From Betaproteobacteria bacterium (lineage in GTDB: Bacteria; Pseudomonadota; Gammaproteobacteria; Burkholderiales; SG8-41): DNA of 44,244 nucleotides. Position numbers and translations under genes: made by a program. The DNA is taken from positions 1-44,244 of the forward strand of contig JACQOK010000349.1 in the NCBI GenBank assembly GCA_016202565.1, written 5' to 3'. Under the pieces are notes generated by a model. The model was not told the origin of the DNA. It was given only the letters and a program-made list of their open reading frames with translations, and did not search any database. This document shows positions 20,772-44,244 of the stretch, piece by piece (position 1 is the stretch's first letter; each line of letters opens with the position of its first letter).

Positions 20772-20779
20772 CGCAGGTG

Positions 20780-22408: not shown

Positions 22409-22422
22409 GGGGTCGGTGTCGG

Positions 22423-23577: not shown

Positions 23578-23598
23578 GAGAGCCGTCCGATCCTCGAC

Positions 23599-24800: not shown

Positions 24801-24817
24801 TTCGCCGCTCCCTTCCT

Positions 24818-25678: not shown

Positions 25679-25679
25679 G

Positions 25680-29618: not shown

Positions 29619-30360
29619 TCATCGCGTCCGTCAGACGACGGCAGGGCAGCGAGCGCACGGTAATTCGCTCGGGGTCAGCCATTGGGCCGTGAACACGCTG
29701 TACGACGAGGGCGCCGGTCAGGCCAGGGCCGGGCACGAAGCCATGAAGCGCCCAGCCGCACCGGTCTCCCGGCGTGCTGTCAACGCGCAGGATGCAGGCG
29801 GGCATACCCGGAGCAAGGGAAACGTCGAAGCGACCAAGCCCATGGCTCAGGCCAGCGCCGAGCGCCTTGACGAAGGCCTCCTTGCGCGTCCAGCAGTTGA
29901 AGAACCCGAGCGGCCTGTCGCGCGGAGCGAGCGCGAGATACGCGGCGTTCTCCCGGGGGGAGAACGCGTGTGCTGCGATTTCGTCGGCGCCGGGGATCAC
30001 GCGCACAGCTTCGATGTCCACTCCGATCTCGCGTGCCGGCGAAAAGGCGTAAACGGCGACATCATCGCAGTGAGAGACGTTGAACTGCAGTCCGGAATGT
30101 GCCAAAGCTCCTCCGAGCGCAGGCTTGCCGCGCCGTCCGTACGTCAGCTCCACCGAGCCCGGCCGAACTCCCAGCCGCATCCCGAGCAACTGGCGCAGTC
30201 GCGCGCGCGCGACAGTAAATCGGCAGCGATCGCGATCCAATGCAAAGCGCCTCGCGCGCTCTCGCTCTTCCGCCGAAAGCAGGGCGGCCGACGCGCCGAC
30301 GGTATCGGGGCCTACGTCGATTCGGGTCACCACGACCTCGATTGCGCTGTCATCCGCCAT
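29599..30360 (-). CDS. Sfp-type 4'-phosphopantetheinyl transferase
   Basis: Motifs are RGKPAL, FNVSHC, IGVDIE and WTRKEAFVKALG. Its 3' end overlaps the loader start by 20 nt. Confidence 0.9.
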   Translation of the reverse strand: MADDSAIEVVVTRIDVGPDTVGASAALLSAEERERARRFALDRDRCRFTVARARLRQLLGMRLGVRPGSVELTYGRRGKPALGGALAHSGLQFNVSHCDDVAVYAFSPAREIGVDIEAVRVIPGADEIAAHAFSPRENAAYLALAPRDRPLGFFNCWTRKEAFVKALGAGLSHGLGRFDVSLAPGMPACILRVDSTPGDRCGWALHGFVPGPGLTGALVVQRVHGPMADPERITVRSLPCRRLTDAMNEHDDA

Positions 30361-30839
30361 GGGGTTTTTCCGCTCTCAGGTTCGGCCTGCGCCATTGCGC
30401 CATGAAGCGTAGGTCGGTACGTTTACATACGCCTGTTCGCCATCGGATTGCCCCATGCGCCAAAGGGGCTATGTCAAAGGGAGTTTCAGCAATGCCGTAT
30501 CTCGAACCCTGGACTGCAAGCTCTCTTACCGGATCGACGACCACACCGATCCGTGGATGCGCATGAGCCGGATGGCTCAGCGTTTCACCGGCTGGCAACC
30601 CCGTCGCTTCTTCATGCGTGTCTAAGATCGCCTCGTTGTCGCGCCAGGACAACAAGCTGAGGATTTCTGGATGCCCACCTCCGCGTTTCATCACGGTCAC
30701 AGCGCTTCCGGCACCGTCGGCAAAGTTACCGATTCCGCGGCGCTGGTTGCCGTGGCGGATGAGTGGATCGCCGTCAGCCGGCTCGCCATCACCGGCCGCA
30801 CGGTTCGCGCCGCTGATGTGTTGAAAACTGGAGTGCGCC

Positions 30840-31118
30840 TTGAGGACGGTCGATGAGCTGCCGGATCTCGCCCTATACGACGAGATCATTACGATTTTCG
30901 TGGAATGCCTGCATATGACAGTACCATCGCTCGAGGCTGATCTGCTTGCAAGCGGCGTGCTCGATTCTCTGGCGCTGGTCGATCTGCTGTTCCAGCTCGA
31001 GACCCGATATGGTATTCGGATTTCCCCCGCAACACTGGACTTCGACGATTTTCGCTCCATCGCGCAGATTGCGGCGTTCGTCGCCCGCGAGCGGAATTCC
31101 GCCAGGATAGGCGAATGA
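30840..31118 (+). CDS. Small acyl/peptidyl carrier protein (92 aa)
   Basis: The motif LLASGVLDSLALVDLLFQLE is DSL-type with a candidate Ppant serine. The start is apparently TTG. Its TGA overlaps the ATG of the next gene (ATGA at 31115-31118). Confidence 0.7.
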   Translation: MRTVDELPDLALYDEIITIFVECLHMTVPSLEADLLASGVLDSLALVDLLFQLETRYGIRISPATLDFDDFRSIAQIAAFVARERNSARIGE

Positions 31119-32197
31119 CCGAGGCCCTTTCCACCACGTCCCCTTCAATCGCTCCGCAAACAGCCGAACGCCCGGAGTATCGCGGCGCCTTCTCCGGCGC
31201 GATCCTGAACATCGATACGGCCGCTGAGGCCGCGCGCATCGCCGCAGCCATCCGAAAGCAAGTGTGGGAGACGCTGCGCCGCCGCGGTGTCGTCGTCGGA
31301 TTGTCAGGGGGCATCGACAGCTCGGTGGTCGCTGCGTTGTGCGTCCGCGCCCTCGGTAAGGACAAGGTGCTGGGCCTGATGATGCCCGAACATCATTCAG
31401 CCGGCGATTCGCTCCGATTAGGACGCGCAGTGGCCGAAGTGCTCGGTATCGAGACACTGGTCGAGGACATCACCCCTGCGCTGGAGGGCGCGGGCTGTTA
31501 CCGCCGACAGGAGGCGGCGATCCGCAGCGTCGTCGCGCAATACGGGATCAAGTGGAAATGCAAACTCGTGCTGCCGTCGCTACTGGAAGGCGAGCGCTTG
31601 AACGTGATGCGACTCACCGTGCAGCAACCCGGCGGTCGGAGGTTCACAGTGCGGCTTACGGCTGAGGCCTATCTACAGCTCGTGGCGGCCACCAATTACA
31701 AGCAACGTGTCCGCAAGATGACCGAGTACTACCATGCCGACCGGCTGCACTACGCGGTGGCAGGCACGCCCAACCGCCTCGAGTACGACCAGGGATTCTT
31801 CGTGAAGCAGGGTGACGGGGCGGCGGATATCAAGCCGATCGCGCACCTGTACAAGACCCAGGTGTACCAACTCGCCGCGCATCTGGACATCCCGCAAGAA
31901 ATCCGTGCACGGCCTTCGACCACCGACACCTATTCGATGGAGCAGACCCAGGAGGAATTCTATTTCGCCCTCCCCTATCACCACATGGATCTTTGCCTGT
32001 ATGCCTACAATCACCAGGTTCCGGCAGCGGTGGTGGCTGCCGAGCTGGGCCTCGCGCTCGAGCAGGTCCAGCGAGTCTACCGGGATATCGAAGCGAAGCG
32101 GCGCGCCACGCGCTACCTGCATACCGCCTCGCTGCTGGTTGATCCGGTGAATGAGGTCGACCCGTCATGTGCGGTATTGCCGGCATCGTCGATCTGA
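31115..32197 (+). CDS. nadE: NadE-family PP-loop ATP pyrophosphatase (NAD+ synthetase-like amidoligase paralogue)
   Basis: The PP-loop is VVVGLSGGIDSSVVAAL. Other motifs are VLGLMMPE, KQGDGAADIKPIAHLYKTQVYQLAAHLDIPQEI and RPSTTD. The symbol denotes the family only, since the context argues against housekeeping NadE. Confidence 0.8.
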   Translation: MTEALSTTSPSIAPQTAERPEYRGAFSGAILNIDTAAEAARIAAAIRKQVWETLRRRGVVVGLSGGIDSSVVAALCVRALGKDKVLGLMMPEHHSAGDSLRLGRAVAEVLGIETLVEDITPALEGAGCYRRQEAAIRSVVAQYGIKWKCKLVLPSLLEGERLNVMRLTVQQPGGRRFTVRLTAEAYLQLVAATNYKQRVRKMTEYYHADRLHYAVAGTPNRLEYDQGFFVKQGDGAADIKPIAHLYKTQVYQLAAHLDIPQEIRARPSTTDTYSMEQTQEEFYFALPYHHMDLCLYAYNHQVPAAVVAAELGLALEQVQRVYRDIEAKRRATRYLHTASLLVDPVNEVDPSCAVLPASSI

Positions 32198-34218
32198 CCA
32201 GCGCTCGGCACGGGCCCTCACGCGAGGCGCTGCTGCGCATGGCGGGCGCGCTGCATCATCGCGGGCCGGACGAATTCGGGATATACCGGGCGCCGGGCGC
32301 GGGTCTCGCTCATGCGAGGCTTTCGATCATCGATCTCTCCACCGGCCAGCAGCCCCTGGCCAACGAGGACGGCACGCTGTGGATCGTGTTCAACGGTGAA
32401 ATTTTCAACTACGTTGAGCTGCGTGCGGTCCTCGAGCGGCTTGGACACCGCTTTCGGACCCGCAGCGACACCGAAGTCATCGTGCACGCCTACGAAGCGT
32501 GGGGCAACGATGCCTTTGAGCGTATGGACGGACAGTGGGCGGTCGCACTGTGGGACGAGCGCGAACAGCGCCTGGTGCTGAGCCGCGACCGCTTCGGCAT
32601 CGCTCCGCTTCACCTTTGCGTGCATCGGGAGCGGCTGTATTTTGCGAGCGAAGTTAAAGCCATTTTTGCGGCCGACGCCTCCATACCGCGCGCGTTCGAT
32701 CCGCTGGGTCTCGAACAGACGTTTACGTTCTGGACCGCGGTGCCACGGCAAAGCGTATTTCACGGAATCGAGGAACTTCGTCCGGGACACGTGCGCGTAT
32801 ATCAGAACGGCAGCGTGCGCGAGACCGCCTACTGGACGCCGTGCTATCACGAACTGTCGGGAGGAGCACGCCGGTTCAATGGGACCGTGGATGATGCCGC
32901 ATTCGCAGTGAGGGAAGCACTCGAGCAGGCCGTGCGGTTGCGCACGCTGCGCGCTGACGTGCCGGTAGGCAGCTATCTGTCCGGCGGACTGGACAGTTCG
33001 CTCGTTGCCGCCCTCGGCAGGCGCTTCGCCGGGAGCACGTTCCAGACCTTTTCACTGCGCTTCACCGATGCCGAGTACGACGAAACCGGCTTTCAGCGCC
33101 TGATGGCCGGCCGGCTGGGAAGCCAACACCACGAGGTGACGGTCACCCGCAGCGACATCGCCGCTGTGTTTCCGCAGGTCGTCTACCATACCGAGCGTCC
33201 GATCCTGCGCACGGCACCCGCACCGTTGTTCCTGCTGTCCAGACTCGTCCGCCGGCAGGGCATCAAGGTGGTGCTCACCGGCGAGGGGGCGGACGAAATG
33301 TTCGCCGGCTACGATGTGTTTCGCGAAGCCAAGGTGCGGCGCTTCTGGGCACGCTTTCCGGAGAGCCGGCTGCGCCCGCGCGCGCTCGAGCGGCTCTATC
33401 CCTACCTCGCCCGTTCGCCGGTGTCGACCCAGGCACTCGCGCGCCATTTCTTCGGGCGCAATCTTGCCGACCACCAGGCCCCGGGCTTCGGGCACGGCCC
33501 GCGCTGGCACACCACTGGCTTGCTGAAGCGCCTCTTCAGCGATCGCATGCGCCACGCCGTGAACGGCCACGACGTCATCGCGGACTTCCTCTGCACGCTG
33601 CCCGAAGAGTTCCGGTGCTGGAGCCGCCTCGCGCAGGACCAGTACATCGAGATCCGCACGCTGCTCAGCGGCTACCTTCTCTCCTCGCAGGGCGACCGCA
33701 TGCTGATGGCGCATTCGATCGAAGGGCGGTTCCCGTTCCTGGACAGAGACGTGGTCGCGCTCGCCGATTCGCTGCCCGCCGAATACAAGCTGCGCGTGCT
33801 CGACGAAAAGCATGTGCTGAAACGAACATCCCGGGGCCTTGTCCCCGATGAGATCGTGCAGCGGAAGAAGCAGCCGTACCGCGCCCCGGACGCGCTCGCG
33901 TTCGTGGGCCGGAACCCGCCCGAATACCTCGAAGAAATGCTGGACGGGAAAAATGTGGCAGAGGCCGGCGTGTTCGATCCCGCAGCCGTCGCACGCTTGT
34001 GGCGCAAGTGCAAAGCGCGCGCGAACGACGGCCAGTTTTCCAACACCGACAACATGGCGGTGACCGGTGTACTCTCAACGCAGCTGGTTTATCACCATTA
34101 CATCCGCCACCGTCCGGCATTCGACTCTCCGGCCGTGCTTTGCACCGATATCGACCATTGCCAGATTTCGACCACGTACCATGCAAGCGATACACGACGC
34201 CGTACCGTTGCTTCATGA
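32167..34218 (+). CDS. asnB: Asparagine synthase family glutamine amidotransferase (EPS-locus type)
   Basis: Motifs are MCGIAGIV (Cys2 Ntn nucleophile), RGPD, SIIDLS..QP and the PP-loop VGSYLSGGLDSSLVAAL. It overlaps the previous gene by 31 nt and the next by 38 nt. Confidence 0.95.
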   Translation: MCGIAGIVDLTSARHGPSREALLRMAGALHHRGPDEFGIYRAPGAGLAHARLSIIDLSTGQQPLANEDGTLWIVFNGEIFNYVELRAVLERLGHRFRTRSDTEVIVHAYEAWGNDAFERMDGQWAVALWDEREQRLVLSRDRFGIAPLHLCVHRERLYFASEVKAIFAADASIPRAFDPLGLEQTFTFWTAVPRQSVFHGIEELRPGHVRVYQNGSVRETAYWTPCYHELSGGARRFNGTVDDAAFAVREALEQAVRLRTLRADVPVGSYLSGGLDSSLVAALGRRFAGSTFQTFSLRFTDAEYDETGFQRLMAGRLGSQHHEVTVTRSDIAAVFPQVVYHTERPILRTAPAPLFLLSRLVRRQGIKVVLTGEGADEMFAGYDVFREAKVRRFWARFPESRLRPRALERLYPYLARSPVSTQALARHFFGRNLADHQAPGFGHGPRWHTTGLLKRLFSDRMRHAVNGHDVIADFLCTLPEEFRCWSRLAQDQYIEIRTLLSGYLLSSQGDRMLMAHSIEGRFPFLDRDVVALADSLPAEYKLRVLDEKHVLKRTSRGLVPDEIVQRKKQPYRAPDALAFVGRNPPEYLEEMLDGKNVAEAGVFDPAAVARLWRKCKARANDGQFSNTDNMAVTGVLSTQLVYHHYIRHRPAFDSPAVLCTDIDHCQISTTYHASDTRRRTVAS

Positions 34219-35737
34219 CTATCTGAGCCACTCGGCGCGCCGACTTGGAGACAAGGTTGCGCTGGTCTGCATGAAGCGCCGCGTGACTTATCGCGAGATC
34301 GAGGAATCCGCGAACGCGCTCGCCCATGCATTGATCGGCCGCGGCGTGGGGCACGGCGACCGCGTGATCGTATTAGCCGACAACACCGTGGAGACGGTGA
34401 TCGCGTTCTGGGCCGTACTCAAGGCGAGCGCCGTCGTCTCGATCGTCAATCCGTCCACCAAGCGCGAAAAGCTGCAATATCTCATCGACGACTGCCGGCC
34501 GGCGGCCCTGATTACCGAAGCGCGTCTGCGCGACGTATGGTTGCTGCCATCGCAATCCCGGCATGTCAGGACCGTGATCGTTTCCGGCGACCTGGGAGAC
34601 GAAATGGCGGGGAACGCTCGCCTCCTGCGCTGGGACGCGCTCGCGCCAGGCGCTCGCAACGTCATCCCTGCCCGCAGGAACATCGACATCGACCTCGCGG
34701 CCATCATCTATACCTCCGGTTCCACCGGCGAGCCGAAGGGCGTGATGCTCACCCATCGCAACATGCTCACCGCCGCCACGTCGATCGCGCAGTATCTCGA
34801 AGTGACTGAAGACGAAGTCATTTTGAACGTGCTGCCGCTGTCCTTCGATTACGGCCTCTATCAGATGATCATGGCCTTCCGGGAGGGGGCGCGGCTGGTG
34901 CTTGAAAGCTCCTTCGCTTTCCCCGCGCAGACGCTGCGGCTGATGGTCGAGGAGGGTGTCACCGGATTTCCAGGCGTGCCGACCATTTTTGCGACGCTTG
35001 CAGAGATGAAGTCGTTGAAGGATTACGACCTATCGCGCATCCGCTACGTTACCAATACAGCCGCCGCACTTCCGGCCAGGCATATCGTTGCGCTCAAGGA
35101 ATTGTTTGCGGGTGCACGGATCTTCTCGATGTATGGACTGACCGAGTGCAAGCGCTGCACCTATCTGCCGCCGCAGGACCTGGAGCGCAAACCCGGGAGT
35201 GTCGGCATTCCCATCCCGAACACCGAGATGTGGATAGTCGACGAAACCGGTCGCAAAGTGCCGCCCAACACCGTAGGCCAGCTGGTGATCCGCGGCGCCA
35301 CGGTCATGCAGGGCTACTGGGAAAAGCCCGAAGCCACCGCCGCAGCATTGAAGCCAGGCCCCCTTTCTGGCGAGCGGGTGCTCTACACCGGCGACTATTG
35401 CCGGATGGATGAGGAAGGCTATCTCTACTTTGTTGGACGCATGGATGACATCATCAAGTCGCGCGGCGAAAAAGTGGCGCCCAAGGAAATCGAGGGGGTG
35501 CTGTCGAACATCAACGGCGTCAAGGAGGCGGCCGTCATCGGCGTACCGGACCCGGTGCTGGGACAGGCCATCAAGGCATTCGTGGTGCTCGAGCGTGGCG
35601 TCACCCTGACCGAGAAGGACGTACAGCGGTATTGCCAGGCGAGGCTCGAGAGCTACGCCCTTCCCAAGTACATCGAGTTCGTGTCCGACCTGCCGAAGAC
35701 ATCAACGGGCAAGATCAGAAAGGTCGGGTTGTCCTGA
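34181..35737 (+). CDS. AMP-forming acyl-CoA/acyl-carrier ligase
   Basis: Track ORF 34067..35737 is trimmed to ATG 34181 (MQAIHDAVPLLHDYL). Motifs are IIYTSGSTGEPKGV, YGLTE, YTGDYCRMDEEGYLYFVGRMDDIIKSRGEKV and TSTGKIRK. Confidence 0.9.
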   Translation: MQAIHDAVPLLHDYLSHSARRLGDKVALVCMKRRVTYREIEESANALAHALIGRGVGHGDRVIVLADNTVETVIAFWAVLKASAVVSIVNPSTKREKLQYLIDDCRPAALITEARLRDVWLLPSQSRHVRTVIVSGDLGDEMAGNARLLRWDALAPGARNVIPARRNIDIDLAAIIYTSGSTGEPKGVMLTHRNMLTAATSIAQYLEVTEDEVILNVLPLSFDYGLYQMIMAFREGARLVLESSFAFPAQTLRLMVEEGVTGFPGVPTIFATLAEMKSLKDYDLSRIRYVTNTAAALPARHIVALKELFAGARIFSMYGLTECKRCTYLPPQDLERKPGSVGIPIPNTEMWIVDETGRKVPPNTVGQLVIRGATVMQGYWEKPEATAAALKPGPLSGERVLYTGDYCRMDEEGYLYFVGRMDDIIKSRGEKVAPKEIEGVLSNINGVKEAAVIGVPDPVLGQAIKAFVVLERGVTLTEKDVQRYCQARLESYALPKYIEFVSDLPKTSTGKIRKVGLS

Positions 35738-35740
35738 ACG

Positions 35741-36865
35741 ATGCCCCGAGCGAGTCAAGGGCCGGCGCTCAAACTCGCGGCCATGGGAGATGTCATGCTC
35801 GACCGTGCGGTTGGCAGGCATTTCCGTGACCGGCCTCAGGACTTCCGAATGGAGCGGATATCCAGCCTCCTGCGAAGCTACGATTTGGTCTTCGCGAACC
35901 TGGAGAATCCGGTCGGCCTCAGGGGAATCCCGCATCCCATCCAGCGCCCGCACGTGACGTTCCGTTGCCATCCGGACACTCTCCGGGTGCTGAAGAATCT
36001 CGGTGTCACGGCAGTCTCGCTCGGCAATAACCATATGCTGGATTACGGCCCCGTATCCCTCGTCGAGACGCTGGAGCATCTGGACGCTCACGGCATCAGG
36101 CACGCAGGGGCCGGACGCAACTACGAGGAAGCGAACCGTCCGCTTCTCATGGAAATTAAAGGACGGAAGATCGCCATCCTTGCTTATGCGTTTCTGTATT
36201 CCGCCAGCACGCAGATGGCTACGCGCACCCGGGCGGGTGTAGCGGACCACCGAATCAGGAACATCCTTCCGCGCATCCGTGAACTGGTGCGGCAGGGATA
36301 CCAGGTGCTGGTATCCGCACATTGGGGGAGAGAGTATTCGTTCTACCCGTTGCCGTACCAAATGGCTCAGGCGAGACAAATGATCGGTGAAGGCGCCACG
36401 ATGGTGATCGGGCATGGGCCGCATTACCCGCAGGGAATCGAAAGCTGCCACGGGAGAAGGATCATTTACAGTCTCGGAAATTTCATATTTGATGAACCGT
36501 TTCGCTATGCGAATCGCAGCTTTATATACGGCGCGGCGATCGGGGCCGACAACGCGCTCCTCGACGAGCAGATCGTCCCGGTGCACATCGCCAATCACGT
36601 TCCCGGGCTGGTGGAAAGCAAGGACAAGGAGAGTCTCGAAAAACTGATCGCGAAACTGAGCCGCCTTTATCCGACGCGGAGCAAGAAGTTCTGGCAGATC
36701 CAGAATTCCCTGTATTTTGGCGACATTGTGTCCCGGGTGTCGCATATGAAGTCGCTCAAGTTCCTGCTTCTGCCACCGCTCTCCTTTTACTGGGCGGTCG
36801 GCATCCGTAATTACGCACGCAAGCTGTTGCCGAAGCCGCTCAAACAGCACATCGCTCGAGGATGA
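35741..36865 (+). CDS. CapA/PGA_cap-family metallophosphoesterase-like protein
   Basis: Motifs are AAMGDVMLDR, FANLENP, SLGNNHMLDYG, VSAHWGREY, IGHGPHYPQG and YSLGNFIFD. It starts 3 nt after the ligase stop. Confidence 0.85.
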   Translation: MPRASQGPALKLAAMGDVMLDRAVGRHFRDRPQDFRMERISSLLRSYDLVFANLENPVGLRGIPHPIQRPHVTFRCHPDTLRVLKNLGVTAVSLGNNHMLDYGPVSLVETLEHLDAHGIRHAGAGRNYEEANRPLLMEIKGRKIAILAYAFLYSASTQMATRTRAGVADHRIRNILPRIRELVRQGYQVLVSAHWGREYSFYPLPYQMAQARQMIGEGATMVIGHGPHYPQGIESCHGRRIIYSLGNFIFDEPFRYANRSFIYGAAIGADNALLDEQIVPVHIANHVPGLVESKDKESLEKLIAKLSRLYPTRSKKFWQIQNSLYFGDIVSRVSHMKSLKFLLLPPLSFYWAVGIRNYARKLLPKPLKQHIARG

Positions 36866-37075
36866 ATATCTGCGCCGGACGGACTATCAGTGATGCGAAG
36901 TACATTCGTTCATTCCAGCTCACAATGCGGTGACGTTCCTTTCCTCACATGAGGAGGTTGGAACCCAGGCATCATTCGACCTCGCCAACTGGCGTGAACC
37001 GCACGCCCCGGATCCGGCAGGCGTCACCGTCGGCTCGCCGTGTCGCCGCGAGCATTCCTCCCGCCGGATAATATC

Positions 37076-37081
37076 AAGGAG
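37076..37081 (+). promoter_or_regulatory. Shine-Dalgarno AAGGAG for the ComA-like gene
   Basis: AAGGAG lies 6 nt upstream of ATG 37088, and the 222-nt non-coding gap 36866-37087 precedes it. Confidence 0.6.
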
Positions 37082-37087
37082 ACTCGC

Positions 37088-37918
37088 ATGAACGTACGGC
37101 CCATCAAGGACCAAGGGATCTTGAGCACCGCCGCATTTCTGCGCGCCATCGGTTTGCCGGCGCTCCCCGCGCGCACTCATCCCTTCGACCCCGGCTACGA
37201 TCCGCAAACCGTCATCAGCCACATCGAGCAGTCAGCCCACCTGATGGCAAGCCTGAAAATCTCCATGGCGTGCTGGCTTGTCGGTGCGGAGGAGGCCTAC
37301 CGTGCGAAGATCGATTTCGCGCGTCGGCGCGGCGTGACGACAGTCACCGGCGGCGGGCCGTTCGAGATCGCGGTAGCCCTTGGCAAGCTCGACCACTACC
37401 TCGCGCTCTGCGCCGATATGGGTATCGCCCGTATCGAGGCCGGCCAGGGCTTTACCGATATGCCACTTGCGCCAAAAGAGGTGGCACGTCGCGCGGCCGC
37501 CTTTGGCCTCGGCTTGCAGTTCGAATTGGGCAAGAAGCACGCCGGGGCCTTCGGCGAGGACACCGTCGGCGGCCTTATCGAGCAGGGCAAGGCTTGGCTC
37601 GACGCAGGCGCCGTATACCTCGTGATCGAGGCGCGCGAGAGCGGCGCCGGCATCGGCGTGTTCGACCAGAACGGCCAGTTGAACTGCAATGCCGCCGAAC
37701 GCTTCGTCGAGGCTTTCGGATTCGATCGGGTGGTATTCGAGGCGCCGAATAAGCTGAGCCAGTTCGCGCTGCTTGCGCACTTCGGCGATCGGGTGGCGCT
37801 CTCAAACGTTCGCCTCGAGGAACTGCTGCGCGTCGAGATCTTCCGGCGAGGACTGCACTCCGATGCATTTGACGCGGAAGTGTTCCAGCGGCGCATGGCA
37901 CTTGCCCAGACTGCGTAG
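37088..37918 (+). CDS. comA: (2R)-phospho-3-sulfolactate synthase (ComA) family protein
   Basis: Several blocks match my recollection of archaeal ComA. These are GGGPFEIA (vs GGTLFEYA), ELGKK (vs EVGKK), DAGAVYLVIEARESGAGIGVFDQNGQL (vs DAGADYVIIEGRESGKGKGLFDKEGKV) and VVFEAPNKLSQFALLAHFGDRVALSNVRLEELLRVEIFRRGL. The start is trimmed from track 37040 to ATG 37088. Confidence 0.85.
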   Translation: MNVRPIKDQGILSTAAFLRAIGLPALPARTHPFDPGYDPQTVISHIEQSAHLMASLKISMACWLVGAEEAYRAKIDFARRRGVTTVTGGGPFEIAVALGKLDHYLALCADMGIARIEAGQGFTDMPLAPKEVARRAAAFGLGLQFELGKKHAGAFGEDTVGGLIEQGKAWLDAGAVYLVIEARESGAGIGVFDQNGQLNCNAAERFVEAFGFDRVVFEAPNKLSQFALLAHFGDRVALSNVRLEELLRVEIFRRGLHSDAFDAEVFQRRMALAQTA

Positions 37919-39199
37919 GTGCCCGCGAAACCTATGGCACCACCGGCGAAATCGGACGAACGGCTCGACACCTCGGTCCCCGTCCTGGTCCTCAAGATGC
38001 ACCATGGCAGCCTGGGAATTGCACGCAGCCTTGGTCGTCTCGGCGTCGCGGTCTACGCTCTTAACGCGTCACCCAAGGCGCCGGCGGCACGCTCGCGGTA
38101 CTGGCGAGCGTGCTACGAGTGGGACGTGGAAAACGTTCCGGCACAACGCTCCGTTGAATACCTCCTTGACCTTGCCGGTCGGCTCGGGAAGGGCACGCTT
38201 CTCATCGCCGTTTCCGACCGCACCGCGCTGTTCGTCGCCGAGAACGCCGACGCGCTCAAGGGGCATTTTTGTTTTCCGAACCTCTCGCGCGAGATCGTGA
38301 CGGGCTTCACCAGCAAGAAGGAAATGTACTTCCTTGCGAGGCGGTTGGGCGTTCCCACAGCGGAGACGCGGTTTCCCCAGTCGCGTGAGGAGCTGATCAG
38401 CATGCTGGATCGCACTCGATTCCCGGTCGTCCTGAAGGGCATTGACGGCGCACGGCTCACGGCGCGCGCGGGACGCGCGATGGCGATCGTGCGCAATGCG
38501 GATGAGCTGCTGGAGCAATACGGGCGCATGGAAGATGAAGCAAGCCCCAATCTCATGCTGCAGGAATACATCCCGGGTGGGGAGGACTCCGTCTGGATGT
38601 TCAACGGCTATTTCAATGCCGATGGCAAATGTCTCGTTGGGTTCACCGGGAAAAAGATCCGCCAGAGTCCGGTCTATACCGGTTCCACCTCGCTCGGCAT
38701 CTGCCTGGGCAACGACCGCGTGGCCGAAATCACGTGCGCTTTCATGAAGGCAGTGGGCTACCGAGGCATTCTTGACATCGGCTACCGCTACGACGCGCGT
38801 GATGGACAGTACAAGGTGCTCGACGTCAATCCGCGCATCGGCTCGAGCTTCCGGCTGTTCGTCGACAGGAACGGGCTGGATGTCGTGCGGGCTTTGTATC
38901 GTGATCTGACCGGCCAACCCATGCCGCAGGCTGCGCCCGCCGAAGGCCGCAAGTGGATGGTTGAAGACGCCGACCTCCATTCTTCGTATAAGTACTGGTG
39001 CGACGGCACGCTGAGCCTTGTGGACTGGCTGCGCTCGTTCAAGGGCGTGCGTGAGTGCGCGTGGTTTGCGTCCGACGACTTGCGCCCTTTTTTCCTCATG
39101 TGCCGGGTGTTTTTCGGAAGCGCCGTGCGGTCGCTGGCCGGCAAGCTCATTCCCTCACTGCGCAAGGCCGTTGTCTTCGTGACTGCGTTCTACGCGTGA
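37919..39199 (+). CDS. ATP-grasp ligase of unknown specificity
   Basis: Motifs are KKEMYFLARRLGVPTAET, FPVVLKG, LMLQEYIPGGEDSVWMFNGYF and GILDIGYRYDARDGQYKVLDVNPRIG. GTG 37919 directly follows the ComA-like stop, and ATG 37934 is an alternative start. Confidence 0.8.
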   Translation: MPAKPMAPPAKSDERLDTSVPVLVLKMHHGSLGIARSLGRLGVAVYALNASPKAPAARSRYWRACYEWDVENVPAQRSVEYLLDLAGRLGKGTLLIAVSDRTALFVAENADALKGHFCFPNLSREIVTGFTSKKEMYFLARRLGVPTAETRFPQSREELISMLDRTRFPVVLKGIDGARLTARAGRAMAIVRNADELLEQYGRMEDEASPNLMLQEYIPGGEDSVWMFNGYFNADGKCLVGFTGKKIRQSPVYTGSTSLGICLGNDRVAEITCAFMKAVGYRGILDIGYRYDARDGQYKVLDVNPRIGSSFRLFVDRNGLDVVRALYRDLTGQPMPQAAPAEGRKWMVEDADLHSSYKYWCDGTLSLVDWLRSFKGVRECAWFASDDLRPFFLMCRVFFGSAVRSLAGKLIPSLRKAVVFVTAFYA

Positions 39200-39244
39200 A
39201 TGACGGCGTTCACCCGCAATGTCACGATCCGGGGAGATAACATC

Positions 39245-39985
39245 ATGAAGAGCGTCGTGATCGACTTTTCGCCCGAGAGCGCGGCGCGCTACCGCAGGGA
39301 TTACGCCATGGTCGCGATAGACGTGATCCGCGCCACCACTACGCTCGCCACCGGCGTGGCGTCCGGCCGGCAGTGTTATGTGGCGTCCTCCGTCAAGAGC
39401 GCGTTCGCGCGGGCCGCCCGTCTGGACCACGCCCTTCTGGCGGGCGAGTCGGGCGGCGAAATGCCCGGCGGTTTCGATATCACGAATAGCCCGGCTGCGC
39501 TCGCTCTGCGTGCGGACATCGAGCGCCCGATGGTTCTCCTGTCCTCCACCGGGACCCAGCTTTTGACGAACGCGCGCGGTTGCGAAGCGGTCTACGTCGC
39601 CTGCTTTCGCAATCATCGGGCAACTGCGGAACACCTCGCACGCCACCATGCGCGCGTGGCGGTGATCGGCGCCGGGACCAAAGGTGAGTTCCGGGAGGAA
39701 GACCAGATATGCTGCGCCTGGATTGCCGGCCGCCTGATGTCATGTGGATACGTCGCCGAAAATGCGAGGACTCGCCAGGTCGTGGAGCGCTGGCAAGACG
39801 CGCCGGCGGGACACTGTCTCATCAGCAATAGCGTGGCCTATCTTCGGCGCACCAATCAACTGAATGACCTGGACTTCGTGCTTACGCATGTCGGTGATCT
39901 CGACACGGTGATTGAGCTGGACGACGATCAGGCAGTGCCCGTCGATTCTCAGCCGCTACCGCGCGTGGCCGTCGCAGGGGCCTAG
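39245..39985 (+). CDS. comB: 2-phosphosulfolactate phosphatase (ComB) family protein
   Basis: Motifs are VAIDVIRATTT, LAGESGGEMPGGFDITNSP, LLSSTGTQ and VIGAGTKGEFREEDQICCAWIAG. GGGGAG lies 8 nt upstream of ATG 39245. ATG 39200, directly after the ATP-grasp stop, is the alternative start. Confidence 0.8.
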   Translation: MKSVVIDFSPESAARYRRDYAMVAIDVIRATTTLATGVASGRQCYVASSVKSAFARAARLDHALLAGESGGEMPGGFDITNSPAALALRADIERPMVLLSSTGTQLLTNARGCEAVYVACFRNHRATAEHLARHHARVAVIGAGTKGEFREEDQICCAWIAGRLMSCGYVAENARTRQVVERWQDAPAGHCLISNSVAYLRRTNQLNDLDFVLTHVGDLDTVIELDDDQAVPVDSQPLPRVAVAGA

Positions 39986-40064
39986 CAGCCATGGGGCGAG
40001 ATGGTCCGAAGCGATCAGGCGCTGGCTGCGCGCCATCGACGCGCCTGAACGGGTTCTCACTACA

Positions 40065-40820
40065 ATGACTGGGCACGTGAGCGAAACAGCCTTCTTCTTC
40101 GAGCTGGACGGCGCTCGGGTATTCGCGATCTTGCACCGTCCGGCAACCGGCGTCCCCTCGGCGGGCGTGGTGCTGTGCCACGCGCTCGGCGAGGAGAAGT
40201 ACTGGTCGCATCGCGCCCTGGTCGGGTTAGCACGGGAGCTCTCGCAGGCCGGCGTCGCGGTGCTGCGCTTCGACTTCCGCGGCGAGGGCGACAGCGACCT
40301 CGAGTTCGAGGAATCGGGGATTGCCACCCGCGTCGCCGACGCGGCGCGCGCGGCCGAGGTGCTGCTCGAACGCGAGCCGCAACTTGGCGGCGTCGCGCTT
40401 CTAGGCCACCGGCTGGGCGGCGCGATCGCCGCGGCAGCCGCCGCGCGCCTGGGCGCGCGCGCGCGGGGCGTAGTACTGTGGGACGCGGTGGTCGACGGGC
40501 GTGCCTACCTGCTCGGGCTGCTGCGTTCGACCTTGGCGAGCCGCCTTGCGCTGCTCGGCAGTGCGCCGACGCGTGCCGCGCTGCTCGCCGCGTTCGAGGC
40601 AGGCGAGACCGTGAACATCGAGGGCTACGGCTTCAGCCCGGGCTTCTACCGCGAGTTGGTCGAGCTGCGCCTCGCCGAGCTGCTCTCACGGCTGCGGTGC
40701 CCGTCGGTGACGATCGACCCCTCCGGCGGTCCGGACGCGTGGCGCGAATCCCGGCACCACGTGCAGACGGCGCCGCACGCGGCGCGCCGCACGCGCGAAT
40801 GGCTCGAAGCTTGCGCATGA
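40065..40820 (+). CDS. Alpha/beta-fold protein, 'hydrolase 2' type (Arg at the elbow), paralogue of 12047..12802
   Basis: Track ORF 39912..40820 (TTG start) is trimmed to ATG 40065 (MTGHVSETAFFFELDGARVF). Motifs are VLRFDFRGEGDS, LLGHRLGGAI and VVLWDAVVDGRAYL. It is 251 aa long. Confidence 0.8.
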   Translation: MTGHVSETAFFFELDGARVFAILHRPATGVPSAGVVLCHALGEEKYWSHRALVGLARELSQAGVAVLRFDFRGEGDSDLEFEESGIATRVADAARAAEVLLEREPQLGGVALLGHRLGGAIAAAAAARLGARARGVVLWDAVVDGRAYLLGLLRSTLASRLALLGSAPTRAALLAAFEAGETVNIEGYGFSPGFYRELVELRLAELLSRLRCPSVTIDPSGGPDAWRESRHHVQTAPHAARRTREWLEACA

Positions 40821-41770
40821 CCGCGCGCATCGTCGCCCTGCGCAACCGCTCAGGCCGCAGGCTCCTCGGCATGCTCGACGAGCCCGCGACCCGGAAGGAC
40901 TGCGGGCTCGCCGCGCTGCTCGTCTCTCCTGGGGTCAAGACCCGGGTCGGGCCGCATCGACTGTACCGCAAGCTCGCGCCGGCGTTCCTCTCGCGCGGCG
41001 TGCCGGTGCTGCGCCTCGATCTGGAGGGGTTCGGCGACTCCGAGGGCGCGCCCGGAGCCGAGCGACTCGAGGACATCTACCGCTCGGTCGAGTGCGGCCG
41101 CCACGTGGGCGACGTAGCCTGCGCGCTCGACTGGCTCGAGGCCGAGCTCGGCCTGCGCCGCGTCATCGTCGGCGGGCTGTGCGGCGCGGCGATCACCGGG
41201 CTGCACTCCGCGGCGCGCGACCGGCGCGTTGCCGCGCTCTACGCGATTGGCTTCCCGGTGACCCTGCACGGCGCGCCCGAGCGCCCCGCCCCCTCCTCCG
41301 GCGAGCTGCGCTCCAGGCGCGAGGTCTACCGGCGAAAGCTCTTCGAGCCCGCGGCATGGCTGAGGTTCCTCTCGCTGAAGAGCGACTTCGGCCTCATGCT
41401 GCGCGTCCTCCGGGGGCGTGCCGCGCCGCCGGAGCAGGGCGCAACGCCCGACCTCAATCCGGCCGTCGTTCCGGGGTTCGCGGCGCTTTTCGCCGCGGAC
41501 CGGCGGGCGCTGTTGATCTTCGGCGAGCGCGACCGCCTGCGCTTCGAGTACGAGGAGAAGTTCGCGCAGCCCCACGCCGCCGCGCTCGGGCGCTACGGCA
41601 GGCGGCTCGAGGTGGCGGTCGTCGCCCGCACCAACCATGTGCTCGGCGACCCGGCCGCGGTCGCCGAGGCGATGCGCATCACCGGCGCGTGGTTGGACCA
41701 CCACTTCATGGCCATTTCGCCATTCGCGCCAGATCTTGCGTCATGCCAGCGAACCGCTGCGACCGCGTAG
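40817..41770 (+). CDS. Alpha/beta-fold protein, 'hydrolase 1' type (Cys at the elbow), paralogue of 11166..12065
   Basis: This is the in-frame part of track ORF 40175..41770 starting at ATG 40817 (MTARIVALRNRSGRRLLGMLDEP). ATGA overlaps the upstream stop. Motifs are LRLDLEGFGDS, VGGLCGAAITGL and RTNHVLGD. Confidence 0.8.
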   Translation: MTARIVALRNRSGRRLLGMLDEPATRKDCGLAALLVSPGVKTRVGPHRLYRKLAPAFLSRGVPVLRLDLEGFGDSEGAPGAERLEDIYRSVECGRHVGDVACALDWLEAELGLRRVIVGGLCGAAITGLHSAARDRRVAALYAIGFPVTLHGAPERPAPSSGELRSRREVYRRKLFEPAAWLRFLSLKSDFGLMLRVLRGRAAPPEQGATPDLNPAVVPGFAALFAADRRALLIFGERDRLRFEYEEKFAQPHAAALGRYGRRLEVAVVARTNHVLGDPAAVAEAMRITGAWLDHHFMAISPFAPDLASCQRTAATA

Positions 41771-41817
41771 CCGGATGTCGCCTCCACATCCACAATAATG
41801 CCGTGTCGACGCAACCA

Positions 41818-42087
41818 TCAAATCGCTATGGCGACGCCGGCGGGCGCTGCGCCGTCCATCTTGCCGTTAAGAAAACGAACCAGATTGTTGATGGAGTCAA
41901 GATTCTCGGGCAGAAGTTCTTCGTCCTTCACCTCGATGCCGTAATTGCTCTCGAGGAACGACACCAGCTCCAGCACGCCGGTCGAGTCTATGATGCCTTT
42001 TTGAAGGAAGGAGTCGTCATCGGAAAAATCCAGCTCCCGTCCGAACAGATAGTTCTCAACGACGAATTTGCGCAGCTCGCCTTTCAT
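41818..42087 (-). CDS. Acyl carrier protein (89 aa) of the EPS-locus type
   Basis: The motif is SFLQKGIIDSTGVLELVSFLE (DS-type Ppant site), and the protein is acidic. GC content is lower than in neighbouring genes. Confidence 0.85.
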   Translation of the reverse strand: MKGELRKFVVENYLFGRELDFSDDDSFLQKGIIDSTGVLELVSFLESNYGIEVKDEELLPENLDSINNLVRFLNGKMDGAAPAGVAIAI

Positions 42088-42125
42088 TTTTCGTTTACCT
42101 CTCCATGGATGATCAATTCACCCAG

Positions 42126-42158
42126 CCGGGACGCTGACCGGGACGCTGACCGGGACGC
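42126..42158. repeat. 12-nt tandem repeat ccgggacgctga x2.75 in the leader of the ACP gene
   Basis: Read directly: ccgggacgctga ccgggacgctga ccgggacgc. It lies 39-71 nt upstream of the ACP ATG (42087, minus strand). Confidence 0.8.
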
Positions 42159-42337
42159 AAACAATCCGCTACGGAGCATAACAAAGGCTGTCTTTCTCCA
42201 GCACTTGGCACGCATGGACCAATAGGATCATGGGGGACACCGGCCTGCGGACAACGTCCCGCCACGTGCGTCTTGGCTTGGATAATCGCTAGCCTGTTGA
42301 TGATCCCGGTGTTTTCCTTTTTCAGGTCAGGTCGCCG

Positions 42338-43573
42338 TCACCGGGCCGCGACACCGCGCGCCGCCGTGGACGCACCGGGCGCGCGCCACAGCGCCTCATA
42401 GGCGGCGAGCAGCTTCGGGACCTCGTGGCGCCATTCCAGCTCGTTCTCGACGCGCCGGCGTCCGAATTCCCCCATCCTCACGCGCCGCACGGGATCATCC
42501 AGCAACTCGAGGATCTTTTCAGCAAGGTCGACGGGATCGTTCTTCCTGGCGTAAAGCGACGCCTCCTGCGCTGAATAGCGCCCTTCTGCAAGATCGAACT
42601 GCACGATAGGCTTGCCGAGCGCCATGTATTCCATGATCTTGTTCAACGTGGACTTGTCGTTCATCTCGTTGGCCACATCTGGATTGACGCAGACGTCGGC
42701 AGTATTCAGCACGGCAAGCAGCGCCTTATCCGGCACGCGCCCGGTGAAGGTCACAAACCGGGCAATCCCAAGCTCCGCGGCGAGGGCTTTCATTTGCTCG
42801 AGCGACGTGCCACCGCCCACCAGGCCGAAATGAACATCGGTGCGACGCAGCTCGACCACGATATGGCGAGCAGCGCGGAGAAGATAGTCGATGCCCTCCT
42901 GCTTTCCCATAACACCGACATAGCCCACCAGGTAGCGGCGTCCCCGCTTGAGAGATCGATCGGGAGGCACGAATTTCATACGTTCCAGGCTCGGGCCGCT
43001 GCGCACGACAAACACCCGGTGGGGCGGCATGCGGCCCCGCTCGATGGCGATCTTCCGATAAGAATCATTGGTGGCGATCGACACGTCGGCGGCGCGGAAA
43101 GACCAGCGCTCCAGCTTCAGAAGCAAGCGATAGATGCTGTCGCGCCGCGCGAATTTTGCTTCGTACAGCTCAGGGTTGATGTCGTGATGATCGAAGACAA
43201 ATTTCTTTCCGAGCAGCTTGAAGAATCCACCGATGAGGAAAAACAGGTCCGGGGGGTTGCAGGCATGAATGACATCGAAGCCGCGCTTGAAAAATACTTT
43301 CCAGGCGAGCAGGAACGTCCAGAACAAGGCTGCCGAGTACTCGATCGCGTAGCCTTTCGCGCCTTCCGCCTCCAGCGGCAGATCGTAGCGCCAGATGTGA
43401 ATGCCATCGATAGCCTCGAATTTTCTTTCGCAACCGTGCCCGGTCGGGCAGATGATCGAGACCGTATAACCCGCGTCGCGCAGCGTAGTCGCCTCCTGCC
43501 ACACCCGGCGGTCAAACGGGCTGGGCAGGTTTTCGACCAAAATCAGGACACGTCGGGGGCCGCTTGTAATCAT
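42338..43573 (-). CDS. GT4-family (GT-B) glycosyltransferase
   Basis: Motifs are VLILVENLPSPFDRRVWQEA, FDVIHACNPPD, YVGVMGKQEGIDYL, FTGRV and NKIMEYMALGKPIVQF. Confidence 0.9.
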   Translation of the reverse strand: MITSGPRRVLILVENLPSPFDRRVWQEATTLRDAGYTVSIICPTGHGCERKFEAIDGIHIWRYDLPLEAEGAKGYAIEYSAALFWTFLLAWKVFFKRGFDVIHACNPPDLFFLIGGFFKLLGKKFVFDHHDINPELYEAKFARRDSIYRLLLKLERWSFRAADVSIATNDSYRKIAIERGRMPPHRVFVVRSGPSLERMKFVPPDRSLKRGRRYLVGYVGVMGKQEGIDYLLRAARHIVVELRRTDVHFGLVGGGTSLEQMKALAAELGIARFVTFTGRVPDKALLAVLNTADVCVNPDVANEMNDKSTLNKIMEYMALGKPIVQFDLAEGRYSAQEASLYARKNDPVDLAEKILELLDDPVRRVRMGEFGRRRVENELEWRHEVPKLLAAYEALWRAPGASTAARGVAAR

Positions 43574-43665: not shown

Positions 43666-44244
43666 TTACCAGGAGAGGCCCTCGTACACGCCCGAGACAC
43701 TCCGCGAATCGCAGATCCGGACGAAATCGATGAGGGTCTGCCCATCGATCAGGCGCTTCGGAATCTCGCGGAACTCGGGCGCGGCGTTGCCGATGACGAT
43801 GGTCCGCGCATGCGCGAGAATCTCCTCGATGCTCTGCACCATCAGCCGCGAGATATGCGGAATATGGTTCAGGATGTAATCCCGGTTGGCGCCGTGGATG
43901 CTCGCAAGACGGACGTTGCTGTCATACACCCGCAGGTCGAAACCTTTCCCGATCAGCCGCTCGGTCAGTTCCACCACCGGACTTTCGCGCAGGTCGTCGG
44001 TGGCCGCCTTGAAACTGAAACCCAGGATGCCGACCTTCCGGCTGCCTTTCTCCATGACGGCGCGCACGCCACGTTCGATTTGCTGCTCGTTGCTCGGCAG
44101 GATGGCGCTGAGGATGGGCAGCGAGAGATCGAGCCTCTTCGCCTTGTAGAGCAGCGCACGAAGATCCTTGGGCAGACACGAGCCACCGAAAGCAAAACCC
44201 GGCTTCAGATAGTAGGCAGAGAGGTTGAGCTTGGTGTCCTGGCA
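43666..44244 (-). CDS. GDP-mannose 6-dehydrogenase-like nucleotide-sugar dehydrogenase; 3' part only, with the 5' end beyond the window
   Basis: The frame is open to the window edge (CQDTKLNLSAYYLKPGFAFGGSCLPKDL.., catalytic Cys motif). Further motifs are GFSFKAATDDLRESPVVEL..LIGKGFDLRVYD and HGANRDYILNHIPHIS, which resemble AlgD as I recall it. Confidence 0.85.
   Translation of the reverse strand, partial: CQDTKLNLSAYYLKPGFAFGGSCLPKDLRALLYKAKRLDLSLPILSAILPSNEQQIERGVRAVMEKGSRKVGILGFSFKAATDDLRESPVVELTERLIGKGFDLRVYDSNVRLASIHGANRDYILNHIPHISRLMVQSIEEILAHARTIVIGNAAPEFREIPKRLIDGQTLIDFVRICDSRSVSGVYEGLSW

Follow-up and report, generated by a model that had tools for sequence, protein, structure and literature searches.

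A conserved module of ComA-like, ComB-like and ATP-grasp genes, with a possible role in acyl decoration of cell-surface polysaccharides

What might an organism do with relatives of the first two enzymes of coenzyme M (CoM) biosynthesis when their genes stand on either side of a gene for an ATP-grasp ligase? The question is raised by contig JACQOK010000349.1, a complete 44,244-bp contig from an uncultured Betaproteobacteria genome bin, which is called the window below. Three open reading frames (ORFs) on the plus strand fill positions 37088-39985 contiguously, with coding-type G+C contents of 0.77-0.78 at third codon positions. The first (37088-37918; PF02679) encodes a ComA-like TIM-barrel enzyme from a divergent subfamily of the phosphosulfolactate synthase superfamily, the second (37919-39199; PF02786) an ATP-grasp carboxylate-amine ligase of an uncharacterized family, and the third (39200-39985; PF04029) a ComB-like protein of the Mg-dependent 2-phospho-hydroxyacid phosphatase family. 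An AAGGAG ribosome-binding site can be read at 37076-37081 on the plus strand, 6 nt 5' of the ComA-like ATG at 37088, and the initial annotation of this locus was correct in placing three contiguous genes after it. The statement that the ligase gene begins directly at the ComA stop applies to the GTG at 37919, which abuts that stop, and not to the ATG at 37934, 15 nt downstream, which is the start in the NCBI gene model (MBI4206787.1, locus tag HY527_17335, 421 aa).

The three genes belong to a genuine conserved module, commonly of four genes. In a forward survey, a search with the ATP-grasp protein, taking one genome per species, gave 80 loci, to which four were added from exact look-ups. In 56 of these 84 loci the ATP-grasp gene has both partners beside it, ComA-like at 57-77% and ComB-like at 43-65% identity, usually in the order ComA-ComB-ATP-grasp. 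In the reverse direction, the ComA-like protein was searched against metagenome contigs, where it has at least 538 relatives, and 80 loci were kept. Where at least 2.6 kb lies downstream, a ComB-like gene follows in 33/34 loci, an ATP-grasp gene in 31/34 and both in 30/34; among the loci whose flanks are long enough on either side, ComB-like is present in 22/22 and ATP-grasp in 21/22. The neighborhood survey proposed with the initial annotation thus turns up the triplet repeatedly and chance is a poor explanation for genes that adjoin one another in dozens of unrelated genomes. Relatives are 57-89% (ComA-like), 43-69% (ComB-like) and 47-73% (ATP-grasp) identical to the window proteins, and the window genes, three neighbors on one strand, are members of the module by arrangement and by these subfamily identity ranges. 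The ComA-like family comprises more than 5000 sequence clusters and the ATP-grasp homologues more than 4900, the best 120 of which are all at least 54% identical to the window protein.

The usual fourth gene encodes a class I S-adenosylmethionine-dependent methyltransferase, which lies most often just 5' of ComA and is present in 36 of the 56 triplet loci (~64%). Tblastn (E up to 1e-6, coverage of at least 50%) finds no homologue of it in the window. Its family gives only generic class I matches (BioC, BchM, CpaM, UbiG, ArsM), which all score far below cut-off and give no indication of where the enzyme acts. The 80 genome loci of the forward survey all come from metagenome-assembled genomes (MAGs), mostly of Terriglobia/Acidobacteriota; other hosts are Ignavibacteria, Bacteroidota, Chloroflexota, Verrucomicrobiae, Proteobacteria, Bathyarchaeota and one Methanomicrobiales bin, and the habitats of the clusters are mostly soils, peat and sediments. 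Five archaeal MAG contigs (L030, L031, L038, L046 and L050; Bathyarchaeota and Methanomicrobiales) carry the full triplet beside GT2/GT4 glycosyltransferase genes, with ATP-grasp proteins 52-55% identical to that of the window, and reflect either inter-domain transfer or mis-binning.

We suggest that the module converts phosphoenolpyruvate (PEP) into a small acid, most likely sulfolactate, which it ligates onto an amine, usually of a cell-surface polysaccharide, a reading in which we place about as much belief as doubt. The ComA-like enzyme would add a nucleophile, most likely sulfite, to C3 of PEP to give a 2-phospho-3-substituted lactate, from which the ComB-like enzyme would strip the phosphate to leave a free 2-hydroxy acid, most likely 3-sulfolactate. 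The ATP-grasp enzyme would then activate the carboxylate as an acyl phosphate and join the acid to an amine. In most lineages this amine would probably be that of an amino sugar in the repeat unit of a Wzx/Wzy or PEP-CTERM-type exopolysaccharide (EPS), exposed by a polysaccharide deacetylase. The outcome would be a strongly anionic acyl decoration, which the methyltransferase may modify further in about two thirds of the loci. We infer which nucleophile is used, in what order the steps occur, which way the ligation runs and what the acceptor is from what is observed directly, namely the family and fold assignments, the conservation of the module, its usual glycan context, a swap of cassettes between related loci and a set of gene fusions. 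Still more tentative is the idea that many uncultured soil and sediment microbes (above all Acidobacteriota, with Bacteroidota, Ignavibacteria, Chloroflexota, Betaproteobacteria and Bathyarchaeota bins besides) use the cassette to attach sulfolactyl groups, with their carbon-bonded sulfonate, to exopolysaccharides, which would make it an unrecognized source of sulfonate in soil.

How far can the first step be read from the ComA-like protein? It matches PF02679 with 151.2 bits (gathering score 25.2) over profile positions 13-243 of 243, and its AlphaFold2 (AF2) model, with a predicted local distance difference test score (pLDDT) of 89, superposes on M. jannaschii ComA (1QWG) with TM scores of 0.81/0.88 and a root-mean-square deviation of 2.3 Å. 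For the B. subtilis phosphosulfolactate synthase (1U83) the TM scores are 0.68/0.82, and the next-best barrels reach at most 0.54. The sequence is 31% identical to M. jannaschii ComA over its full length, 28% to the Xanthobacter and 22% to the Brevibacillus protein, with an overall range of 22-31% for the references. Against the archaeal ComA equivalog model TIGR03849 (arch_ComA) it scores 144.4 bits, where the cut-off is 280. The assignment to the superfamily therefore holds, by profile and by fold, and the description of the protein as a 'clear' phosphosulfolactate synthase was too strong.

Comparison of 49 triplet-linked ComA-like proteins with four references (M. jannaschii ComA, the CoM-pathway ComA of Xanthobacter, a YitD-like protein of Brevibacillus and a Legionella protein) bears on the active site, whose residues we judged by conservation and give in M. 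jannaschii numbering. The charged core that is invariant in the references (D20, K43, K60, E79, E103, E133, K137, E168, R170, E171, E205, K209, N227 and R240) is kept in 49/49; it includes Lys137, which we take to be the proton donor of ComA. The preprint on HSA32 contains no active-site detail. About 12 further reference-invariant residues are exchanged for residues invariant in the subfamily (Y38L, D40S/A, G47A, T48C, S49W, T76G, S105G, D106E/Q, Q211S, A229R, R244H and T247A). In the AF2 model most of the exchanges lie no more than a few residues away from the C-terminal ends of β2, β3, β4, β7 and β8, or in the C-terminal loop, that is, on the catalytic face. A lack of the residues needed for sulfite/PEP chemistry had been named at the outset as grounds for abandoning the proposal; the charged residues are all in place, and it is the catalytic face around them that has changed. 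From sequence and model, the PEP, Mg and acid-base machinery looks intact and the specificity pocket remodeled.

With about a dozen residues of the catalytic face replaced, the nucleophile could differ from sulfite, in which case a different 3-substituted lactate would be formed and the phosphatase and ligation steps would be unchanged. The score below the equivalog cut-off is in keeping with such a change, as are the lack of recurring sulfur-assimilation genes near the module and the existence of a Streptomyces copy, described below, that has no ComB and stands beside an SbnB-like gene. Against this possibility, the entire charged core and the fold are kept, a malate-racemase-like neighbor fits an anionic beta substituent such as sulfonate, and the reference set is one of four sequences, so that some of the exchanges could reflect oligomer contacts. 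Sulfite is favored because it is, to our knowledge, the sole known nucleophile of the ComA family (Graham et al. 2002, cited in PMC9457059). On balance we infer that sulfite is the likeliest nucleophile, and hence sulfolactate the likeliest acid, and consider a different nucleophile somewhat unlikely. On the Legionella lytica plasmid pLlyPCM2298_1 (L091, 2616-6244), a 970-residue protein annotated as phosphosulfolactate synthase carries the ComA domain at its C-terminus, with a class I/II aminotransferase gene before it and a ComB gene after it.

The ComB-like protein matches PF04029 with 124.1 bits (gathering score 26.4) and falls below the cut-offs of the NCBIfam equivalogs, the best score (PRK00886/TIGR00298 models) being 78 against 235, and that for TIGR00298 being 68 against 175. 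Of the residues invariant in the references, D41, R44, G82, E83, N96, S97, P98, N138 and D168 are kept in 48/48 sequences, and positions K88M and N117S/T differ. At the superfamily level, then, the families first proposed for the second and third genes both stand (PF02786 and fold for the ATP-grasp protein, PF04029 for the ComB-like protein). In both search directions the ComB-like gene is always accompanied by the ComA-like gene, which argues that the product of the ComA-like enzyme is a phosphate ester that is then hydrolyzed to a free 2-hydroxy acid.

A homologue of LarA, the nickel-pincer 2-hydroxyacid racemase, lies beside the module in 11-12 of the 56 triplet loci (L010, L024, L025, L027, L028, L034, L049, L065, L070, L071, L073 and L076). 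Its best matches are malate racemases, at scores far below cut-off. Because sulfolactate is the sulfonate analogue of malate, this neighbor fits sulfolactate weakly, and by sequence it is a candidate sulfolactate racemase; its presence is weakly consistent with a free hydroxy acid bearing an anionic beta group. That the CapA-like protein of the window, with its weak match to an MslH epimerase model, stands in for this racemase is speculation.

The archaeal CoM pathway opens with the reactions of ComA and ComB (PMC9457059). The module might accordingly serve CoM biosynthesis, or the accumulation of free sulfolactate as in Bacillus spores (YitD/YitC), with the ATP-grasp gene an unrelated neighbor. 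The likeness to the archaeal pair is considerable: the same two superfamilies are adjacent and would act in the same order, and the fold, the charged ComA residues and the ComB motifs have been retained. The module nevertheless differs in its 31% identity, its scores below the equivalog cut-offs, its changed pocket and its coupling to an ATP-grasp gene and usually a methyltransferase gene, and its hosts are mostly soil bacteria in which we know of no use of CoM. Neither ComC (Ldh_2) nor ComDE (TPP-enzyme) domains occur in the scanned ORFs of the window, as had been noted initially, or in the Pfam-annotated related loci. The Xanthobacter xcb arrangement, in which ComA is followed by two fumarate-lyase-family enzymes and a pyridoxal phosphate (PLP) enzyme (seen in L089), is likewise absent from the window and from its annotated relatives, and CoM-type bacterial ComA is only ~28-31% identical.

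Bacillales do contain ComA/ComB pairs without further genes, and the Bacillus YitD/YitC pair (PDB 1U83; spore sulfolactate) resembles the module in that the pathway, with no CoM genes, would stop at the hydroxy acid. That pair, however, sits among sporulation genes without an ATP-grasp gene (22% identity in the Brevibacillus example), whereas the pair studied here is coupled to a ligase gene and linked with glycan loci. Given the absence of downstream genes from the window and from the Pfam-annotated relatives, and the linkage of the ATP-grasp gene to the pair across phyla in 31/34 and 21/22 informative loci, we reject CoM biosynthesis and free sulfolactate accumulation as the principal function and regard them as very unlikely indeed.

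What would the ligase do with the acid? The ATP-grasp protein matches PF02786 with 30.6 bits (cut-off 19.8), and Foldseek aligns its AF2 model (pLDDT 88) to biotin carboxylase, PurK and the L-amino-acid ligases RizA and BL00235 with E values of 1e-18 to 1e-15. The canonical three-domain ATP-grasp fold and the nucleotide and Mg motifs are present, and among 36 homologues K173, Q215, D302, N304 and R306 are invariant and E216 nearly so. It is not a member of the characterized subfamilies (D-aspartate ligase, L-amino-acid ligases, RimK, cyanophycin synthetase, Ddl): its best NCBIfam score is 43 against a cut-off of 271, its sequence matches in the PDB have E values of 0.005 or worse, and its structural neighbors there are only 13-19% identical. 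Database labels for the family are 'hypothetical', 'carboxylate-amine ligase' and 'D-aspartate ligase', the last being an automatic source label. With no close characterized relative, the acceptor is not deducible by homology.

Gene fusions bear on this point. Two homologues (P0064 and P0078) are fused to a polysaccharide deacetylase, and the P0064 fusion comes after the genes MT-MT-ComA-ComB (MT, methyltransferase) in a glycan locus; fusions of the ATP-grasp protein to a methyltransferase account for five of the best 120 homologues. The C-terminus of the window protein (residues 389-425; 39083-39199) is predicted to form a long helix, hydrophobic in the window and basic or amphipathic in relatives. 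This helix may serve to attach the protein to the membrane, as would be apt for action on lipid-linked intermediates.

The neighborhood of the module points to glycans as well. Genes that recur within 5 kb of it encode GT4 glycosyltransferases, priming transferases (Bac_transf), chain-length tyrosine-kinase-like ATPases, NAD-dependent epimerases, UDP-glucose dehydrogenases, NusG-like antiterminators, Wzy_C polymerases and Polysacc_deac_1 deacetylases; an XrtA/PEP-CTERM-associated ATPase, EpsI and a PEP-CTERM protein are also present in related loci. The module usually lies mid-operon in polysaccharide loci of the Wzx/Wzy or PEP-CTERM type. In a group of Terriglobia loci it stands mid-operon directly 3' of the priming transferase gene and before the genes for a 450-aa multi-pass membrane protein and the polymerase, and in L015, L013 and L012 the order is kinase-NusG-Bac_transf-[MT-ComA-ComB]-ATPgrasp-ATPgrasp-membrane protein-Wzy-deacetylase-GT4-epimerase.

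The comparison that tells most is with a related locus, L019, which is syntenic with these three, save that a pair formed by an SbnB-like dehydrogenase and a methyltransferase takes the place of [MT-ComA-ComB]; in L064 the ATP-grasp gene occupies the same position as in L015 and L019 without supply genes. ComA/ComB and an SbnB-like gene occur together in 0/57 loci, and the SbnB-like gene adjoins the ATP-grasp gene in 20-21 of the 28-29 loci that lack the triplet. This sister cassette, which combines an SbnB-like protein (ornithine cyclodeaminase family), an ATP-grasp protein of the same family and a methyltransferase (L061-L083, for example L082 8810-11976; L019 3418-7835), is mostly stand-alone in MAGs of Acidobacteriota and Verrucomicrobiae. 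It shares with the module the ATP-grasp family (47-55% identical), often the type of methyltransferase and, in L019, the position; it differs in that the SbnB-like dehydrogenase replaces ComA/ComB, and is itself uncharacterized. The cassette swap and the fusions fit interchangeable precursor-supply cassettes that feed a common ligase, and the exchange of [MT-ComA-ComB] for [SbnB-like-MT] is a clean natural experiment on the function of the ATP-grasp family. The acceptor would then come from the glycan pathway, most economically as a sugar amine exposed by the deacetylase. In other words, the idea in the initial annotation of an acid supply coupled to a ligase acting on an amino sugar gains from the fusions and the swap; its sulfite and sulfolactate are argued from family membership.

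The same loci also allow the polarity of the ligation to be reversed, so that the ATP-grasp enzyme would activate the carboxylate of a glycan uronic acid and couple it through an ester bond to the 2-hydroxyl of sulfolactate, or through an amide bond to the amino acid that the SbnB-like cassette would supply. A UDP-glucose dehydrogenase gene lies near the module in 10-11 of the 56 loci, and in the window, and the SbnB-like cassette would make an amino compound able to serve as a nucleophile. Ester-forming ATP-grasp enzymes exist, for example the VanA-type D-Ala-D-Lac ligases. By analogy, the reaction would resemble that of the Campylobacter jejuni capsule glucuronamide ligase. The HS:2 capsule glucuronamide system of C. 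jejuni is alike in roles, with an ATP-grasp enzyme in a polysaccharide locus, an amide decoration, a phosphatase and a small phosphorylated precursor (PMC11800379). There, however, a sugar carboxylate is activated and the small molecule gives the amine, whereas the acid proposed for the module has a carboxylate and no amine; the precursor enzymes are unrelated. Reversal would furthermore require both ester and amide bonds from closely related ligases, many module loci have no such dehydrogenase within 5 kb, and the fusion and co-location with deacetylases indicate a freshly freed sugar amine as the nucleophile. We consider the reverse polarity improbable.

A different picture comes from the nearest relatives of the window genes. 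These loci (64-89% identical; L004, L085, L086, L093, L096 and L173), which include the closest betaproteobacterial ones, have the module as an operon of its own, ComA-ATPgrasp-(MT)-ATPgrasp2-ComB, with unrelated neighbors (TamB/Omp85, transporters) and no glycan genes, which makes a soluble product a real possibility in these lineages. The ATP-grasp enzyme or enzymes would in that case join the acid to amino acids or amines to form a pseudo-peptide that could act, for example, as compatible solute, signal or secondary metabolite, in analogy with the biosynthesis of N-acetylglutaminylglutamine (NAGGN) amide or dapdiamide; in the window it might feed carrier or polyketide synthase/nonribosomal peptide synthetase (PKS/NRPS) chemistry. 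The second ATP-grasp-like gene, ATPgrasp2, is found in some modules, encodes 355-374 aa (L004 11259-12377; L085 3445-4569; L086 12063-13157; L172 8934-10001), and suggests by its sequence a second ligation step. Its product is weakly similar to cyanophycin synthetase and NAGGN synthetase in their ATP-grasp domains, a resemblance in favor of a soluble product, and the AsnB-like gene, AMP-forming ligase gene and adjacent PKS/NRPS cluster of the window point in the same direction.

The Streptomyces copy of the ComA-like gene belongs in this context. It lies on a linear plasmid of Streptomyces sp. NBC_00211 (L088, 345009-369803), is 51% identical to the window gene, shares most of the pocket exchanges of the subfamily and has no ComB. 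Its neighbors are an annotated sbnB on one side and genes for an acyl carrier protein (ACP), KS, KS-like, MbtH, methyltransferase and NRPS proteins on the other, in an NRPS/type II PKS-like cluster, and the arrangement is seen on six Streptomyces plasmids. These copies suggest a secondary-metabolite role for the ComA-like subfamily, which is therefore not restricted to glycan work. An ATP-grasp protein of that cluster was considered as a possible member of the module family and rejected (BLASTP E 0.004, 23% identity over 152 residues). Several features count against a soluble product for the module: in most lineages it lies between the priming transferase and the flippase/polymerase genes of EPS loci, the deacetylase fusions indicate a sugar acceptor, the PKS/NRPS cluster of the window is on the opposite strand and lies beside no related module, and GT4, UDP-glucose dehydrogenase and exosortase-type genes adjoin the window cassette. 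A soluble product is in our judgment rather unlikely.

The window itself presents a mixed setting. The plus-strand operon that contains the triplet begins with a carrier protein with a phosphopantetheine attachment site (30840-31118; PF00550), followed by a NadE-like ATP-dependent amidating enzyme of the N-type ATP pyrophosphatase kind (31115-32197; NF002048, 524 bits against a cut-off of 313), an AsnB-like glutamine amidotransferase (32167-34218; TIGR01536, 529 bits), an AMP-forming acyl ligase resembling the exosortase A-associated ligase (34178-35737; PF00501, PF13193; the ORF opens at 34067, and the Met codon at 34178 is the likely start) and a CapA/PGA_cap-family protein (35741-36865; PF09587, 226 bits). 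A gap of 222 bp separates the CapA-like gene from the triplet. On the other side lie two alpha/beta hydrolase genes on the same strand, resembling exosortase A-associated hydrolase 2 (39912-40820; PF12146; the ORF opens at 39912, and ATG 40065 is the likely start) and hydrolase 1 (40865-41770, start approximate). The placement of the cassette between the ligase/CapA genes and a hydrolase pair was thus well described at the outset. On the minus strand, convergent with the operon, follow a second small carrier protein (41818-42087; PF00550, with weak matches to ornithine-lipid ACP and AmcB models), a GT4 glycosyltransferase (42338-43573; PF00534, PF13692, PF13439) and the C-terminal part of a UDP-glucose/GDP-mannose dehydrogenase (43666-44244; PF03720), whose gene runs off the contig end.

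With two carriers, the AMP-ligase, the NadE-like and AsnB-like enzymes and the CapA-like protein, and a PKS/NRPS cluster adjacent, this is not a plain polysaccharide locus. The earlier description as one agrees with most related loci, which are EPS loci, and does not agree with the operon of the window or with the nearest relatives, which lie outside EPS loci. Four of the genes have models of the XrtA/PEP-CTERM accessory cassette as best or near-best matches, all below cut-off: the AMP-ligase (TIGR03098, 468 against 592), the two hydrolases (TIGR03100, 62.8 against 168; TIGR03101, 97.7 against 203) and the AsnB-like protein (TIGR03108, the XrtA/PEP-CTERM amidotransferase model, 432 against 817). 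The window genes resemble that cassette without belonging to it. In the window, moreover, the CapA-like gene and the triplet stand between ligase and hydrolases, no exosortase or PEP-CTERM protein is seen in the 44 kb, and the PLP decarboxylase of the canonical cassette is not found. In the glycan reading, the exosortase A-associated-like, GT4 and UDP-glucose dehydrogenase genes that flank the cassette are favorable. The product of the triplet may here pass through carrier-protein chemistry before reaching a polymer, and the AMP-ligase, carriers, hydrolases and amidating enzymes would process the group or deliver it to a surface polymer built with the adjacent glycosyltransferase and UDP-glucose dehydrogenase.

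Several observations weigh against polysaccharide decoration by sulfolactate, beyond the low equivalog score and altered pocket of the ComA-like protein, the distance of the ligase from characterized enzymes and the stand-alone operons of the nearest relatives. No deacetylase is identified in the 44-kb window. No sulfite-supply gene recurs near the module, a persulfide dioxygenase-rhodanese fusion (L001) and TauD (L004) occurring once each. The window's own partners (carrier, AMP-ligase, NadE-like and CapA-like) are rare beside the module, being found only in L070, L004 and L133. The set of carrier, AMP-ligase, NadE-like and AsnB-like genes recurs only in L070, a Bryobacteraceae locus with the order ATPgrasp-MT-LarA-ComA-ComB, where the NadE-like copy is 49% identical and the carrier homologue adjoins the AMP-ligase; the CapA-like gene recurs only in L004 (68%) and L133 (59%), and AsnB-like genes lie beside the module in L070, L002 and L172. 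Finally, all module carriers found are uncultured genomes, and matches to the ATP-grasp protein in the plasmid collection, as a source of cultured hosts, are at most 31% identical.

The synthesis of sulfolactate by ComA/ComB and the decoration of capsules by an ATP-grasp enzyme, in C. jejuni, are already known, as are all three enzyme families. The novelty lies in the combination, a conserved and abundant cassette that crosses phyla and forms a mobile unit for making and then ligating an acid in polysaccharide loci, with ComA/ComB as one of two or more exchangeable sources of the precursor. In the searchable literature we found no description of a ComA/ComB/ATP-grasp module, linked to EPS or otherwise, of sulfolactyl groups or of sulfonated exopolysaccharide, in agreement with what was initially supposed, and papers in which ComA of Acidobacteria, SAR11 and Alteromonas is mentioned contain no account of the module.

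If the product is sulfolactate, the module would be the first route to sulfonated, as distinct from sulfated, bacterial exopolysaccharides. Sulfonates make up a large part of soil sulfur. A sulfolactyl decoration would constitute a new class of glycan decoration, relevant to the question of where soil organic matter obtains its carbon-bonded sulfur and to how biofilm matrices are charged, hold water and bind metals. If instead the nucleophile differs, the ComA-like subfamily would provide a new Michael-addition chemistry of PEP. In either case the module is abundant, with thousands of sequence clusters dominated by Acidobacteriota, whose polymers are poorly known. The label 'phosphosulfolactate synthase', carried by thousands of proteins, implies CoM biosynthesis and needs care, there being no downstream genes in any locus examined.

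Other features of the window touch the module less directly. The hybrid PKS/NRPS cluster next to the cassette operon occupies 12799-30360 on the minus strand if its phosphopantetheinyl transferase (29599-30360) is included, and 12799-29618 without it; it is absent from all related module loci examined. It encodes an NRPS with C-A-T domains (12799-16047), a PKS with KS-AT-KR-ACP domains (16083-21254), a stand-alone adenylation enzyme, an acyl-CoA dehydrogenase and a 3-hydroxyacyl-CoA dehydrogenase, an FkbM-type methyltransferase (24818-25765) and a DH-FkbM-ACP protein (25680-29618), all on the minus strand. A scan of 30300-42400 gave no promoter-like sites and fewer terminator-like sites than in shuffled sequences, and is uninformative. 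The G+C content is 0.58-0.59 at 35000-37000 and at 24000-26000, against ~0.64 overall; the first of these stretches, which includes the CapA-like gene and the 222-bp gap, may mark the junction of a cassette insertion. At the 5' end of the contig (138-8130) are genes for a MASE1-PAS histidine kinase, a glgA-like glycogen synthase, a nucleotidyl transferase and a LuxR-type response regulator with a hybrid kinase, which appear unrelated to the cassette. Beyond them, on the minus strand, 10555-11112 encodes a truncated-looking C-terminal fragment of heparinase II/III, followed up to 13234 by overlapping ORFs with alpha/beta-hydrolase matches and poor coding signal; the ORFs of 10555-13234 may be decayed or frameshifted genes.

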